The translations under genes and the position numbers were made by a program. Below the pieces are notes generated by a model. The model was not told where the DNA came from and made no database searches. It saw only the letters and a program-made list of their open reading frames with translations. Positions 18,903 through 31,995 of a stretch of 64,000 bases of DNA are shown one piece after another. How positions within the stretch are numbered: the stretch's first letter is position 1; each line of letters opens with the position of its first letter. This stretch comes from a virus. The DNA lies in the IMG/VR virus record IMGVR_UViG_3300042898_004347, positions 76,054 through 140,053 of that record, one strand, 5' to 3'.

Positions 18903-19601
18903 TTAGGAAGTTTTGATTTCCGCAAATTCTGAGATCATTGGAAAGATTGGAGCAAGGGCAAGAGCCATATTCTGCGCCAATTCCATATGTTCCTTCTGCG
19001 TCCCATTGCCCGAACGAACCTCGATGTAATGGATAAAGCTACGCAACGTTCCAGAGACGTAAAGGCGCGAGACAGTATTACCCTCAGGTAGAATTGCGCG
19101 GGCTTGTTCCTTGGCAATACCGCGTTCCAATGCAGCTTTATAAGTTGTTGTTACTAAATCAATTACCTCTTGCTGTTTGTTTTCCCACCACAATTTTGTG
19201 GCGTCATCAGCAGTATTCAAGGAATTCTGACGATTCTTATCATCCTGAAGGCGAGCTTCACGCGTTACAAAGTCCAACTCTTTCACGGGATCCGCATAAC
19301 GCTGGCTGAATTCTTGGAAAGAGAACGAGCGGTGCCGAAGAAGCTGACGAGCAATATCCCGCGTCGTATTAACTTCTACGCAGGCAGACACCATCTCAAG
19401 TGGAGACCAATGCTTGTTGCGAATAAGGTAACGAATCAGTTTGTCCGAAGTCTCGGTATTGAACTGGTTCTTCGGATTCGAAACTCGTGCGCAAAATGCA
19501 ATGAGATCCTGAAGGTCCATACTGAAATCTTCGATTCCAAGTGGTTTTAGGCCATCCGCCATCTTAGAGTGACTAATGAGTTTTACTTTTTTACTTATCA
19601 T
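18903..19601 (-). CDS. thyX: Flavin-dependent thymidylate synthase
   Basis: HWSPLE, RHRSFSFQEFSQRY (ThyX motif), AKEQARAILP. Confidence 0.95.
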   Translation of the reverse strand: MISKKVKLISHSKMADGLKPLGIEDFSMDLQDLIAFCARVSNPKNQFNTETSDKLIRYLIRNKHWSPLEMVSACVEVNTTRDIARQLLRHRSFSFQEFSQRYADPVKELDFVTREARLQDDKNRQNSLNTADDATKLWWENKQQEVIDLVTTTYKAALERGIAKEQARAILPEGNTVSRLYVSGTLRSFIHYIEVRSGNGTQKEHMELAQNMALALAPIFPMISEFAEIKTS

Positions 19602-25562: not shown

Positions 25563-26561
25563 TTATTGATTCCAGTGAGGATAAAATTCTCTGGATAAAT
25601 GAACAGATTGTGGTTTTTCCATGCAGGCAAAATCTAATTCGCCTTTGAGATTCATTAGCTTTGAAATCCATTCAAACACCTTGACATTGCCTTTGGCATT
25701 CTTATGAAGCTGTTCAACGAAGAGATTTCGAATATCATTGCGTTCATTCCAGGTACCATAGAATGGAGTTCCCTTGTAATAGCCAGTCTTTGGCAATTTG
25801 CGAGACTCGTTTTCAATTGGTAGAGGTTCCCAGATTGTCACTTTGCAGTTACACGTCTTTGCAAGATCCTCACATTGCTGAACATATCCAGCAACAAGAT
25901 CTCGAGTAGCTGCCTCAGGATTACTCTGACGAAGCAGATGATGGCGAATGTCAATGTTTCCGAAGTACACTTCAATCTCATCGTACTTCAGTTTATTTGG
26001 TAATACAAAAGATTTGAGACCCGAAGTGATAGCACCATAAAGAGTTTTATATGGGACGCAATTCAGTTTCCATCCTGGGCGATACATGGAAAGAGCATGA
26101 GAATCTCCGATTGCCAGTTTTGCGCTTTCTAATTCAAGATCCGTGTTGATTACCGTCGCAGATGTTTCAATCCGGGCCAGATTAATCCAGTCGACTAGTT
26201 TCCAATCTGGATGCGATGCTGGTTCTTTATCAACCCGGGGTTTAATCATCTCAGAGTATTTTGGGAAATCAATTGTGAGGGAAAGGACTTTACCAGTGAA
26301 CTTGGACAAACGGACAATCTGGTCAATTGCACCAAATTGCTTGACGCCTCCAAACATATTGACAGTACCGCCCCAATCATTCCCATGATAGACTGCAATC
26401 GTATCAAATGCATTGTAATCCTTAATCTTGCCACCATGGTTGACGGTAACATCGTATCCCATGCATTTAAGTTGATCAGCATAGATTGCAGCCTGCGCGG
26501 CACGATGCGATGAAATCCGCTCCGAGATTGGAGCCATCGGTGTAGTGATTAAGACTTTCAT
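25563..26561 (-). CDS. Putative DNA-modifying enzyme: T4 BGT-like N-terminal domain plus SGNH-like C-terminal domain
   Basis: N-half echoes BGT (MGYDVTV, FDTIAV, VNMFGG, KVLSLTID); C-half has GDSH, FGNID, SVH; occupies the bgt locus. Confidence 0.55.
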   Translation of the reverse strand: MKVLITTPMAPISERISSHRAAQAAIYADQLKCMGYDVTVNHGGKIKDYNAFDTIAVYHGNDWGGTVNMFGGVKQFGAIDQIVRLSKFTGKVLSLTIDFPKYSEMIKPRVDKEPASHPDWKLVDWINLARIETSATVINTDLELESAKLAIGDSHALSMYRPGWKLNCVPYKTLYGAITSGLKSFVLPNKLKYDEIEVYFGNIDIRHHLLRQSNPEAATRDLVAGYVQQCEDLAKTCNCKVTIWEPLPIENESRKLPKTGYYKGTPFYGTWNERNDIRNLFVEQLHKNAKGNVKVFEWISKLMNLKGELDFACMEKPQSVHLSREFYPHWNQ

Positions 26562-27505
26562 GATTTAAAATAAGCGCGATTCTCTTCCATATCCCCGAGA
26601 TCTTTCCATTTACGCTGGCTATTAATTTTTGAAATATCCACTTTAGATAGATTGCGGTTAATGTGTGCATCCGCACCCACATTTATAAAGATTGCTCCTG
26701 GTTTTCCTTTTTTTACAAACCCTTCCCATGCTTTTGCGTCATATGCCGCAGTTGTTGGGAACGGCATTTCATTTGCAATCGGATGAGCTTTAAGGAAAGG
26801 CATAGTTGCCGTTACAACTTCAGCATCGCCAATTTCACCATCATGGATATTTCGAGCAACTGCAACCCCGTAGGCTTTTGCATTTGGCCAGCCAATTTGA
26901 AGTGCCCGAACCATTGTGCCTGTTGATACAGCACACCAAATTTCAGAAGGTTCATGCCCAATTAAATTAGTAACCATATTAGCCATGTTTGCAAGTCCAG
27001 CAGTCACTGTTGCATTTCCAGTAAGACCAAATGGAAGATACTGAGCATTATTCTTTTCTGCCCATTTTTTCGCATAGGAATTCAATACTGGCATTGCAGC
27101 AATCTTAAAGAATCGCATGTCTGTATGTGCATAGGCAAAAAGAGCACCTTGATGATTCGATACTTCAGATGAAGCTGGACAAAAGAAAACACATTTCTTA
27201 TTATACATCTGAGCCAACATGGCGATGGCATCCGGAGCGTGACCCTGCCGCGGTGCACAGTAGACTAAAGTATCCTTAGGAGTTTCAGCAATAACTCGTT
27301 CTCCGCCGAATGCCTTTAATCCACCCGGAGCAAAATCTGCTCTAAGGATGTATTTGTCTCCGAACTGTTCAACAACTGGAGGATCGATTCGAGTATTGAA
27401 CGTCCCCCACAAGTTTTGATAATACTCTTTTGCCTGGCTACGCGACATCCCTTTCGGAATATCCTTGTTAGATGTGTCTTGAGTTACTGTGTACATGTTT
27501 TGCAT
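26558..27505 (-). CDS. PLP-dependent enzyme, fold type II (Trp synthase beta / ACC deaminase-like)
   Basis: LRAD...GGLK (PLP lysine), WCAVSTGT phosphate loop, YDAKAW. Confidence 0.75.
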   Translation of the reverse strand: MQNMYTVTQDTSNKDIPKGMSRSQAKEYYQNLWGTFNTRIDPPVVEQFGDKYILRADFAPGGLKAFGGERVIAETPKDTLVYCAPRQGHAPDAIAMLAQMYNKKCVFFCPASSEVSNHQGALFAYAHTDMRFFKIAAMPVLNSYAKKWAEKNNAQYLPFGLTGNATVTAGLANMANMVTNLIGHEPSEIWCAVSTGTMVRALQIGWPNAKAYGVAVARNIHDGEIGDAEVVTATMPFLKAHPIANEMPFPTTAAYDAKAWEGFVKKGKPGAIFINVGADAHINRNLSKVDISKINSQRKWKDLGDMEENRAYFKS

Positions 27506-28647
27506 AGTTCCTTATATTTTTCTGCCGTGACTCCAGCGCGGCTAATGACATAGTCGTCTGATGGGTGTACATCGAGATCGTTAAACGACTTAATGAGACC
27601 GAGCTCGAGCATCGGCTTCTGCCGGCCATAGGGATGGTCGTGAATACGATGTGATGACCAAAGATTATCTCTGTCCAGATGATTATATGCAGAGCCTGGA
27701 CGAACGTAGTTTTCAACCCAACGGATGAAATCACAGCACACGTCTTCTGCGTTATAAGGGAATGCTCCGGTATCAGATTGAATTTTCTCCATGACAAGAT
27801 CGAGGAAAGCCTCGGTCTTCATCTTTTTGTTTGGAACTGCAAGATATGAAATACATTCAACAGCATTTGAACCATAGTAAAATGGGGTATCCCGATGGAC
27901 ATACTGAGGAAACCAATCAGCAACGTCAGCAACAACTGCTGCATATTGGAAAGCAAACCTACGCATTCCATTTGCTTGATTCCAGCTCAACATGAATTCG
28001 CCAATTTCGCGAAGTGTCTTTTTGTTTCCAGCAACTAAAAAATCTGCAAGCTCAGTGGCCAAACGTGGAGCAAATTCGCAGAGGTAGTAATCGCCACCAC
28101 GTTTATAACCTGCGGGTGGTTTTGGAAATGCAGGAAACTGGTATCCAACTGAAGTGTAAAACGGAGACTTCTCGGCTTTCACGATTTCCGTCATCTCTGG
28201 AATTGAAGAAGCAGTATGAAGCTTGAACAATAACGTATTATGGTAACCGGATGGTTTGGTTGCATAATTGATGGCAGAACCTGTTACGCGGTGAAGAATG
28301 AATACGTACATCCATTCTGCAAGAGTGAACTTCTTTCCATTCCAACTCGTGGCCACAGTCTTACGTTGCGCAGTATGGTTTCCTGATGACATCTTCATCC
28401 AATAGGGGTGATCTGCATTCCAACCATAAAAGCAATCATTCACGATCTGCGAGAATCCAGCAAATTTACGTTCAACCACATCGTAGAGCTCAACATTTTC
28501 AAGCAAAGCATCACCCATTTTAGACTCGGCATGAGTAAGCATCCCATAAGGAGGTCTAGATGAAACGTTGCATTTCTCCTGTTGATCCTTTGCTAATTGA
28601 TAGTAGCGAAGGAATTCATCGTAATAGTGTGTAGTTGAAAGACTCAT
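27484..28647 (-). CDS. aGPT-Pplase / amino-acid:DNA transferase-like protein (HhH glycosylase fold)
   Basis: C-terminal AEDVCCDFIRW (ExxxC[DE]xx[KR]) and GMRRFAFQ...AD; next to the PLP enzyme and hydroxymethylase. Confidence 0.55.
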   Translation of the reverse strand: MSLSTTHYYDEFLRYYQLAKDQQEKCNVSSRPPYGMLTHAESKMGDALLENVELYDVVERKFAGFSQIVNDCFYGWNADHPYWMKMSSGNHTAQRKTVATSWNGKKFTLAEWMYVFILHRVTGSAINYATKPSGYHNTLLFKLHTASSIPEMTEIVKAEKSPFYTSVGYQFPAFPKPPAGYKRGGDYYLCEFAPRLATELADFLVAGNKKTLREIGEFMLSWNQANGMRRFAFQYAAVVADVADWFPQYVHRDTPFYYGSNAVECISYLAVPNKKMKTEAFLDLVMEKIQSDTGAFPYNAEDVCCDFIRWVENYVRPGSAYNHLDRDNLWSSHRIHDHPYGRQKPMLELGLIKSFNDLDVHPSDDYVISRAGVTAEKYKELCKTCTQ

Positions 28648-28650
28648 AAA

Positions 28651-29097
28651 TTATTCGAATTTGACAAATTCCCAGGTAATACCTGCTTCAGTGAACATCT
28701 GCTGAGTCAGATTCCACGACTCTTGCCACGTTGCAGGTATTTCCTGCCATGGCATAACGATGTTTTTAATTCCAACTTGGATGATGCCTTTTGCACATTC
28801 AGAGCAAACTGGCAATCCATGCACAAACAAAATGGATCCATCAAGCGAGACGCCACTATAACTTGCGTTGTAGATGGCATTCATTTCTGCATGAACCACA
28901 TATTTGTACTTCGTCGGACGATCAGCATACCGATCCGGAGTATCTTGGATTCCACGTGGGAAACCATTATAGCCCTGAGCTAGTACCTGACCCTTCGACC
29001 CAATGATGACACATCCGATTTTTGTGGATGGATCTTTCGACCATCCAGCAATCTCTCGTGCTAACTTAAGGTAGCGACCTTTCCACTTATTATCCAT
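28651..29097 (-). CDS. cd: dCMP deaminase
   Basis: SKDPSTKIG, GYNGFPRG, HAEMNAI, PVCSEC. Confidence 0.92.
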   Translation of the reverse strand: MDNKWKGRYLKLAREIAGWSKDPSTKIGCVIIGSKGQVLAQGYNGFPRGIQDTPDRYADRPTKYKYVVHAEMNAIYNASYSGVSLDGSILFVHGLPVCSECAKGIIQVGIKNIVMPWQEIPATWQESWNLTQQMFTEAGITWEFVKFE

Positions 29098-29767
29098 TAA
29101 TAAGTGTGAAGTGCCGTTCATAGACGTGGAGCGAGCCGACGTGCCAGATGAGGTCTCCCATTTCATAATTATTTTCTCCGAGCGTGTTTAGATCTTGCAG
29201 AAGGCGGGTTTGTACTATGTATTGCCAGGCACGATCATTCTTATAACCGAAGACAACATCATTGCTTCGCATTTGGACGATGGCATGAAGTTTATTGTCT
29301 CGAATAAGATATTGCACAGCATTCGTGCACATGAAATCGGAACAGCCATCTTCGCAATAATGCTGGTGCATCTCTGGCCGAGTATAGATCATTATGGCTC
29401 TGCGACTATTTGGATTTGCAATAAGCTCATTTCGCGCAGAATTATATTGCTTATAATTGGTTTCTGAGTAGATGCACCAGCCATAGTTTGAATTAATCCA
29501 GCCATCTTTCGTTGCAACTTGTTTCCAGATCTTAGGAGCACCGCCAGGAATATCATTGACATTCAACGACTGGGAATCATACCATTGAAGTTCAGCATTG
29601 ATGTACTCATAATTTGGTTTGCCAAAGATGGCTTCTTCATCTGCAAAGAATGATGCGCCACATAACTCGAGTGTTTTAACACCACTCTTGTCTGTCACAT
29701 AGGCACCATTCGTTAGAGCATCTTTAAAATGCTGACGAATATCATTAACTCTGGGTAGATTTAGCAT
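29090..29767 (-). CDS. 42: dCMP hydroxymethylase (T4 gp42-like)
   Basis: INSNYGW, DFMCTNAVQYLIR, MRSNDVVFGYKND with Asp at the thymidylate synthase Asn177 position, GSLHVYERHF. Confidence 0.88.
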   Translation of the reverse strand: MLNLPRVNDIRQHFKDALTNGAYVTDKSGVKTLELCGASFFADEEAIFGKPNYEYINAELQWYDSQSLNVNDIPGGAPKIWKQVATKDGWINSNYGWCIYSETNYKQYNSARNELIANPNSRRAIMIYTRPEMHQHYCEDGCSDFMCTNAVQYLIRDNKLHAIVQMRSNDVVFGYKNDRAWQYIVQTRLLQDLNTLGENNYEMGDLIWHVGSLHVYERHFTLING

Positions 29768-30095
29768 TGAGATGGCGGTTAAGAAAGTCACGATCAGTGC
29801 GCTGGCCGTCAATACCTTTACGGCAGAATGACACAAAGAAGGATGAATAGTTAATGAGATCCTTTGCAGAGTCTTCAAGGGAATCGAAATTAGGTGCATA
29901 GTTTGCATCATTCTCCATTGCCTCAAGGACAGAACGAAGACGCAGCACCTTTGTGTTCATGATGTCAAGGATTGACGCAGCACCGCGTGGATAATAATCA
30001 GCTTGACGAATCGTACTATTTGGATTCTGATAATCGTTGGACTTTTTGAGTTGCAGATCTGCACACTCTTGGAGGACTTTGATGGATTCTTTCAT
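29745..30095 (-). CDS. Nucleotide-modification-associated (Nmad1/DUF1599-like) alpha-helical protein
   Basis: KKSNDY...K..RL...DSLEDSAKDLINY. Confidence 0.65.
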   Translation of the reverse strand: MKESIKVLQECADLQLKKSNDYQNPNSTIRQADYYPRGAASILDIMNTKVLRLRSVLEAMENDANYAPNFDSLEDSAKDLINYSSFFVSFCRKGIDGQRTDRDFLNRHLNAKSTQS

Positions 30096-30643: not shown

Positions 30644-31594
30644 CTAGAGCATGACACTCTTGTAGGCAAACTCAATGGCACGTTCAGCTTCCACATTCAA
30701 TGGTCGTTTTTGATAAAGCCTAGAGGTATCGCTATCGAGACCGCGGATCATTTCTGCAATCTGCGATGCGGTAATAGGATATTTGCGCTTCACTGCATTG
30801 CACGCAATACTCGACATGATTTTGTAGATCATGCGGTATCTTCCAGAGCCATCAATCGATGAGATTGTCTTGTACTCATTGATCAGCTTTTTATTCACAA
30901 AAGGACAATCGGTATAGGATGACCAGCTTACAGAGTTATTGTTCAGTTGTTCTTTCCGATGATTCAGAATTTCTTTCTGAATGTTGGATGGAAGCTTATC
31001 AATGAAACTCTGAGATGGCTTTTCGCTGAATGGATGCATTGCCATAATCTGGTCTGGATCCATGATCTCACCGGACCGAACCACGATAAAATTATCAGCA
31101 TCTGGATATTGCGCAGGAACGTAATACATCCGGCTCAGATCTTTCGTCTGCTCATCCGCCATAGAATTAAAATGCTTATTCAGGGCATACCAAAAATGAC
31201 GAATTTTATCAGGAGGTACTTCCTTGTTCAATTGAAATACGATTCGAAACTTCTTTTTGTCTGGACGAGATGACGCAGTCGAATAACAAATATGCTTGTA
31301 CTGAGAATACACCTTTACTGCATCTGCAAATGAGCACTCATATTCGTCCACATCCAATGCAGCCCAACCACCCCAGGACGTTACATTGGCGTTGGATCGA
31401 GTTCCACCTTTGGCATAGACTGCTGGAGAAATGAGAGAAGATGATTTCTTCGTCTCACCCCTTTTAGCCTTATAGCCTGGCAATCTTGAAAGCATGAAAA
31501 GCAACTTTTCAAAGTCCGCCCAAGATTGACAGACTACTAGCTTATCCGTCTTATTGTCAAAGATGGAATCAAATACTGTGAGTGAATAGTTCAA
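30644..31594 (-). CDS. AEP/Prim-Pol-like primase family protein
   Basis: ALDVD (DxD), YSTAS, KFRIVF, D.SRMYYVP. Confidence 0.6.
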   Translation of the reverse strand: MNYSLTVFDSIFDNKTDKLVVCQSWADFEKLLFMLSRLPGYKAKRGETKKSSSLISPAVYAKGGTRSNANVTSWGGWAALDVDEYECSFADAVKVYSQYKHICYSTASSRPDKKKFRIVFQLNKEVPPDKIRHFWYALNKHFNSMADEQTKDLSRMYYVPAQYPDADNFIVVRSGEIMDPDQIMAMHPFSEKPSQSFIDKLPSNIQKEILNHRKEQLNNNSVSWSSYTDCPFVNKKLINEYKTISSIDGSGRYRMIYKIMSSIACNAVKRKYPITASQIAEMIRGLDSDTSRLYQKRPLNVEAERAIEFAYKSVML

Positions 31595-31995
31595 TCGGTG
31601 AAAATAGGTCCAAGCAATCCTACGTTATCTGCGTGAGATGGTGCAGTCCAACCTTGAGGCTTAATTAGATCTGGAAGACCCAATGGATTTGGCCGAGACT
31701 CTTTTACTCCTACTTGTTTAGCGATGTTCGCTTCATATACCGCAGCCCAGGCTTTTTCAGAATCAACATCAAAAGCGTTGAGTGTGCCGATGGCAACAAC
31801 GCAAAGATCGATGAGTGCATCAACCACATCATCAGCATTGTCTGCTTTCTTCATTTCATCGAGTTCTTCTTGCAAGAACTTAATGCGAAACTCCAGGAAA
31901 GCCTTAAGCTTTTCCTTGTCGAATTCACGTACGATTGGATTTACTCCAAATTTGCGATGCATATATTCAATGTCATGTACCCAATTAGTTTTCAT
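31591..31995 (-). CDS. MazG/PRA-PH-like dNTP pyrophosphohydrolase
   Basis: LQEELDE...VDALIDL...V.EAN..K...DLIKP.GW..P. Confidence 0.8.
   Translation of the reverse strand: MKTNWVHDIEYMHRKFGVNPIVREFDKEKLKAFLEFRIKFLQEELDEMKKADNADDVVDALIDLCVVAIGTLNAFDVDSEKAWAAVYEANIAKQVGVKESRPNPLGLPDLIKPQGWTAPSHADNVGLLGPIFTD

Follow-up and report, generated by a model that had tools for sequence, protein, structure and literature searches.

Introduction

How phages that carry gene 42 but have no T4-type glucosyltransferase, such as 44RR2.8t, 31 and 25, protect their DNA has been a question since 2010 (PMC2993671), and the locus described here offers an answer. The DNA analysed (hereafter the window) is a stretch of 64,000 nucleotides, positions 76,054 to 140,053 of the IMG/VR record IMGVR_UViG_3300042898_004347, and forms part of that 140-kb, 84% complete record of a T4-like virus. 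At the position of b-gt in T4, just upstream of uvsX, the window has an open reading frame (ORF) of 332 residues (25563..26561, minus strand; phrog_13881) in which a BGT acceptor domain is fused to an SGNH-fold domain. Judged from its sequence and its neighbours, the fusion ORF probably helps to place a chemical group on hmC in phage DNA, and its target is likely a C5 side chain of cytosine in DNA, some part of which it would acylate. Our main reading, to which we assign a probability of roughly 0.4, is that it O-acylates hmC in DNA and so creates the leaving group for an HhH transferase.

The family comprises 1,267 clusters at 90% identity and 424 at 50%. Literature searches found no published description of it; an earlier mention is possible in Iyer et al. 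2013, who reportedly predicted the aGPT-Pplase families. We regard the system as a variant of phage pyrimidine hypermodification with probably a new enzyme class. If the main reading is true, it would add a new class of DNA-base enzymes as well as a new route to hmC activation, and an hmC-acylating enzyme could, like BGT, label 5hmC in epigenetic sequencing. The cultured phages 44RR2.8t, 31 and 25 carry the family, so the idea is directly testable.

The locus and the precursor base

The genes run in the order polymerase, MazG-like, primase-like, unknown, Nmad1, gp42-like, dCMP deaminase, a 387-aa protein, PLP enzyme, fusion ORF, uvsX, gp40 and gp41. On the minus strand, these include a MazG-like nucleotide pyrophosphohydrolase that is a candidate dCTPase (31591..31995), a protein with a weak match to Nucleotide-modification-associated domain 1 (DUF1599; Nmad1; 29745..30095), a T4 gp42-type dCMP hydroxymethylase (29090..29770, start approximate), the dCMP deaminase (28651..29166), the 387-aa HhH-glycosylase-fold protein (27484..28647) and a fold-II PLP enzyme (26558..27505; phrog_7093, E 3e-73, with PALP weak at E 5e-4), whose gene overlaps the start codon of the fusion ORF. 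The slot that holds b-gt and segA between gene 42 and uvsX in T4 holds the fusion ORF here. Promoters and terminators showed no excess, their level being the same as in shuffles. The primase-like gene (window 30644-31594), between the polymerase and the modification cassette, matches the N-terminal part of phrog_9765 and has no Pfam match. Elsewhere in the window, an ORF at 18903-19601 reads by eye as carrying a ThyX-like motif; such an enzyme would give dTMP independently of the gp42-like enzyme.

The gp42-like synthase is 60% identical to T4 gp42 and has Asp at the positions of ThyA 169 and 177. Under the specificity rule that we applied, Asp at both positions denotes dCMP specificity and hydroxymethylation, not hydroxylation (PMC13326640). 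The same dCMP-hydroxymethylase signature is found in all 58 synthases near homologues of the fusion family, one of them from a PolA-type phage unrelated to T4, and the control synthases of M6 and ViI have no Asp at 177. Two other precursors were rejected: one of the hmU type, given Asp at 177 here and in the 58 neighbours and not the Asn177 of dUMP hydroxymethylases, and one made by a dCMP hydroxylase (5hoC), given that Asp169 is kept and that identity to distant T4-like synthases, which we take to be of the RB69 type, is about 25%. The hmC context presumed in the first-pass annotation of this DNA is borne out by these neighbours, and we strongly infer from the synthase residues that C is replaced by hmC in the phage DNA through the gp42-type enzyme.

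The N-terminal domain and BGT

The fusion ORF is like T4 BGT (b-gt; PF09198; PDB 1qkj, 1nzd) in its acceptor domain, its Asn-x-Phe-Gly-Gly loop, its place between gene 42 and uvsX and its association with hmC; it differs in having an SGNH fold for the UDP-glucose-binding C-domain and in that the equivalent of Asp100 is not conserved. Residues 1-111 (26229..26561, minus strand) make up the homologous domain. Its profile aligned with five BGTs at an HHalign probability of 97.3% (E 2.7e-11, 104 columns), and its HMM placed four BGTs ahead of every one of about 5,290 ORFs used as background, where the best unrelated match had E 0.09; T4 alpha-GT was not matched. The acceptor-domain likeness that the first-pass annotation had noticed is, by these two measures, above chance. 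The whole-family profile reached 81% against T4 BGT, and Pfam PF09198 fell short of its cut-off on the fusion ORF (E 0.071). No match came from pairwise BLAST of the fusion ORF against BGT, from phmmer and hmmsearch of PDB sequences or from an ESM Atlas feature search with the N-domain. Foldseek with the whole predicted model found T4 BGT 1qkj at E 1.1e-3 (TM 0.33, rmsd 15); BGT is absent among the structural matches listed, which SGNH proteins fill, and this absence is not evidence against BGT homology.

In BGT, a loop with Asn70 and Phe72 has a base-flipping role. T4 BGT (NC_000866) has N70, F72 and D100, with a 30-residue spacing from Asn to Asp that is equal in the fusion ORF, and the residues to which the annotation had pointed (N68, D98, G152-D153-S154-H155, N202 and H321) are present as numbered. 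The loop Asn68/Phe70/Gly71/Gly72 is well kept in the family, with N68 in 114 of 118 homologues, F or Y at position 70 in 102/118 and G72 in 108/118. Position 98, which the HMM aligns with BGT Asp100, holds Asp in 23/118 and Pro in 44/118 of the homologues, among them some with about 56-62% identity, whereas Asp100 is kept in all five BGTs. The catalytic base of BGT is Asp100 (as cited in bioRxiv 10.1101/2023.12.21.572611). The proposal that hmC flipping and deprotonation are both kept from BGT was found to hold only in part: the conserved Asn68 loop agrees with flipping, but BGT-type deprotonation fails because Asp98 is not conserved, and Asp98 was rejected as the general base. The His of an SGNH site does not require a second base. 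In terms of sequence homology, then, the N-terminal domain is a relative of the BGT acceptor domain that has retained the loop and lost the base.

The C-terminal domain and the SGNH fold

The C-terminal half of the fusion ORF matches BGT with a probability of 0.9% and matches SGNH proteins instead, so the loss of the UDP-glucose domain that had been proposed is upheld. In an AlphaFold model with a pLDDT of 97, residues 143-331 (25569..26135, minus strand) match the SGNH fold (best Z 14.7, rmsd 3.6 over 176 aligned residues, to 2hsj), and all 50 structural matches listed appear to be of the SGNH/GDSL type, as the annotation had expected for this half. Ser154 and His321 are invariant (118/118 homologues), as are D153, H155, D204, H208, R254, G269, R274 and E315 in the same domain, and the aligned ranges place S154 in register with the nucleophiles of TesA and OatA.

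Set against the canonical SGNH blocks (PMC7448272), the expected SGNH-like motifs are only partly there. Block I, with its G-D-S nucleophile, and the block V His are both present. At the block II position the fusion ORF has Y171, with Gly in 72/118 homologues; block III reads G-N-I-D and not the canonical G-x-N-D, the Asn standing one residue away from its usual place (N202 in 103/118); and the Asp of the block V D-x-x-H is missing, its place taken by Q318 here and by R, Q or K across the family. The block V Asp may be replaced by the invariant E315, or the site may work as a Ser-His dyad of the kind that CE2 enzymes have. Ser-His dyads (PMC9487903) and atypical oxyanion holes (PMC9487903, PMC7448272) are known in active SGNH enzymes, and because of these precedents we predict that the fusion ORF is likely catalytic.

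The fusion ORF belongs to SGNH by its fold and its Ser and His, with atypical blocks. It is like the SGNH hydrolases (2hsj, PAF-AH, sialate O-acetylesterase) in fold (Z 10-15), block I G-D-S and C-terminal His, and our comparison also took in the SGNH transferases OatA-C, OafB, PatB and DltD; from the superfamily it differs in being joined to a DNA-acceptor domain, in having G-N-I-D for G-x-N-D and in having no D-x-x-H Asp. The word "DNA" occurs nowhere in a 2022 review of the SGNH family (PMC9487903). The protein would be BGT-like in how it engages its substrate and SGNH-like in its chemistry; it is not a BGT.

The SGNH fold does not tell a transferase from a hydrolase; acyl transfer, its donor and its direction (transfer versus hydrolysis) are what we infer. 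The top structural matches are hydrolases, namely acetylesterases and PAF acetylhydrolase, and no dedicated gene for making an acyl donor was recognised in the operon, both of which would suit an enzyme that cleaves an ester or amide from an intermediate bound in DNA, perhaps to unmask a protected payload after the HhH step. We consider such a deacylase improbable: the conserved genes of the cluster include none that we recognised as coding for an acylating enzyme, and the BGT donor domain has been replaced by a domain swap, which suits a new donor. Alternatively, the Ser/His site could carry a non-acyl group (e.g., of a phosphoryl type), or the protein could mainly deliver flipped hmC to the HhH protein. 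The non-canonical oxyanion hole and triad (Y171, G-N-I-D, Q318) would fit this, H155, D204, H208, R254, R274 and E315 are extra invariant residues without an explanation, and SGNH folds include OSK, a non-enzymatic RNA-binding family (PMC9487903). We nevertheless think it an unlikely account, given the complete invariance of Ser154 and His321, the register of Ser154 with the SGNH nucleophile and the active enzymes with dyads and atypical oxyanion holes cited above.

At its end (window 25563-25600) the fusion ORF has no L-x-x-F-F clamp-like tail; one is present in 64/120 of the nearest homologues, against less than 1% in a shuffled background, and the polymerase of the window has such a tail.

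HhH partners, candidate payload genes and the missing kinase

Thymidine hypermodification (M6, ViI, PaMx11, PhiW-14, SH-Ab 15599) combines 5-HMUDK with AADT/aGPT-Pplase and a PLP enzyme. The present cassette is like these pathways in its hydroxymethylpyrimidine precursor, its apparently HhH-fold protein with a Glu..Cys motif and its PLP enzyme; unlike them, it has hmC and not hmU as precursor and no kinase that we found, and the SGNH fusion is absent from their descriptions. The top fold matches of the 387-aa protein are all in the HhH superfamily (all Z <8), including PaMx11 gp46 (Z 6.6), and it matches none of Pfam PF18723, PF18724 and PF18746 (ADDT, HMUDK_hel). Residues E301, D302, C304 and C305 are invariant; the Glu and the Cys pair recall the Glu and Cys that are essential in AADTs (PMC8989533), and the protein is a candidate amino acid:DNA-transferase-like enzyme.

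The family is linked to HhH proteins both by fusion and, at most loci, by neighbourhood. Five database proteins fuse it to the clade of the 387-aa protein, and ORF233c of Aeromonas phage 44RR2.8t and P0160 join it to a second HhH clade, of HMUDK_hel-like type. Where both flanks extend 4.5 kb or more, an HhH partner is present at 64 of 65 loci, or in 20 of the 21 clusters formed at 60% identity. With only 21 clusters the sample is redundant, and it is biased too, since loci were ranked on their likeness to the query and a fusion protein. The first clade occurs with a PLP enzyme at 43/46 loci and the second with a myo-inositol-1-phosphate synthase at 17/18, never with both. One PLP-type and one inositol-type member that were compared have nearly identical C-terminal active-site motifs, and since these motifs stay while the candidate payload genes switch, an acceptor common to both types, hmC, fits.

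A search for the 5-HMUDK kinase (PF18748) in the 84%-complete record of the window and in five complete carriers (three 99-100% complete viral genomes, 44RR2.8t and PTm1) found none; the M6 and ViI positive controls matched, and a divergent kinase could be missed. The absence of an hmU-DNA kinase, on which the first-pass annotation had built, is in this sense corroborated. In the thymidine pathways, the group that departs to give the Cys-mediated exocyclic methylene is phosphate (PMC8989533, PMC11472151).

On our main reading, the steps would be as follows. A gp42-type enzyme would put hmC in place of C in the phage DNA; after replication, the BGT-derived domain, whose homology is set out above, would bind the DNA and present a flipped hmC. 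Ser154, activated by His321, would be acylated by a donor in the cytoplasm, probably acyl-CoA, to form an acyl-enzyme, and the acyl group would pass from Ser154 to the 5-hydroxymethyl oxygen, a chemistry suggested by the fold and the invariant residues. His321, and not Asp98, would activate the acceptor hydroxyl, leaving Asp98 with no catalytic role. The ester would be a stand-in for the phosphate of the thymidine pathways: a Cys of the HhH protein would attack C6, the carboxylate would be expelled and an amino acid or amine added, which the PLP enzyme would then tailor, both steps by analogy with PMC8989533. The larger claim is that a serine acyltransferase of the SGNH type works on a DNA base, and that O-acyl-hmC, activated with no kinase, feeds interchangeable HhH transferases which add an amino acid or amine, or inositol, to cytosine in a widespread branch of phage DNA hypermodification; it is a tentative one that falls a little short of an even chance.

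Several points weigh against the activating role, among them the non-canonical blocks II, III and V, the carriers that have no HhH partner, the hydrolases among the top fold matches, the 84% completeness of this genome and the bias in the locus sample. Moreover, unactivated hmC can be condensed with thiols by C5-cytosine methyltransferases; an enzyme that depends on a Cys may therefore do without a leaving group when its substrate is cytosine. In the main rival account the protein is instead a terminal acylating enzyme, whose acyl group (or aminoacyl group, as with DltD) stays on hmC itself or on the finished adduct, be it an amino acid derivative, inositol or a sugar, the HhH protein needing no ester. 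In favour of this are the three unrelated candidate payload sets with which the family occurs (PLP enzyme, inositol-phosphate synthase, and UDP-galactopyranose mutase without HhH), the weak matches of three members to PF19040, a model of AT3-fused SGNH domains (best E 0.004), and precedents in PaMx11 gp48, which acetylates 5-NmdU (PMC8989533), and OafB, which acetylates O-antigen sugars. Terminal acylation, however, leaves the missing kinase unexplained and accounts less well for the repeated HhH fusion, and we think it somewhat unlikely.

Relatives without an HhH partner

Homologues in 44RR2.8t/31 (ORF233c, phrog_17781) and in phage 25 (ORF225c, phrog_13881) belong to the same family at 30-35% identity and are annotated as hypothetical; the 44RR protein is fused to the HMUDK_hel-like HhH domain and lies by a sodium:solute symporter, and that of phage 25 stands alone by a UDP-galactopyranose mutase. 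Aeromonas phages 25 and Aes012 and Tenacibaculum phage PTm1 keep the Ser and His although no HhH partner could be detected in them, so an HhH protein is not indispensable to the family; about half of 40 full-length cultured carriers (phages 25, Aes012, phiAS4 and relatives) match neither HhH clade, and the tie to HhH proteins is accordingly not a strict one. The standalone homologue of phages 25 and Aes012 (L217:2776-6047, L218:1773-5047) adjoins the UDP-galactopyranose mutase and a 358-aa protein to which neither Pfam nor PHROGs gave a function and which, from its N-terminus by eye, looks like a GT-B glycosyltransferase. These genes make the two phages a candidate for a galactofuranosyl-hmC pathway.

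The homologues without HhH diverge at Ser319 and in the loop 255-268, with Asn68 as a further point of divergence in the phage 25 type, whereas a PLP-type and an inositol-type member are nearly identical at these sites. This divergence, which counts against terminal acylation, may be read as a changed acceptor in the HhH-less branch, a reading that at the same time makes terminal acylation a live option.

Variation among cassettes

A close relative (L007:5952-8996) of the window's cassette (25563-28647) shares 96% identity in the HhH protein and 97% in the deaminase, but 38% in the PLP enzyme and 78% in the fusion ORF, which suggests that PLP alleles are exchanged within the cassette. At many loci the 387-aa and PLP genes have between them another HhH-like paralogue, a divergent one (L047:6156-7145, L063:6066-7100, L083:6014-7030), and a C5-cytosine methyltransferase-like gene is present in 7 of the 65 well-flanked loci (L047:9089-10288, L135:14837-16015); neither was found in this genome. 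The second HhH clade often occurs with an FkbM methyltransferase besides the myo-inositol-1-phosphate synthase (L120, L135, L177, L182, L183), and in 44RR2.8t (L001:7408-11388) the sodium:solute symporter adjoins the fusion in place of the inositol-phosphate synthase; the payload of this clade is suggested to be inositol or a polyol, made or imported. Erythrobacter phage R6L gp1 (L003:4819-7241) combines an N6/N4 DNA methylase domain with a homologue of the PLP enzyme of the window in one fusion protein.
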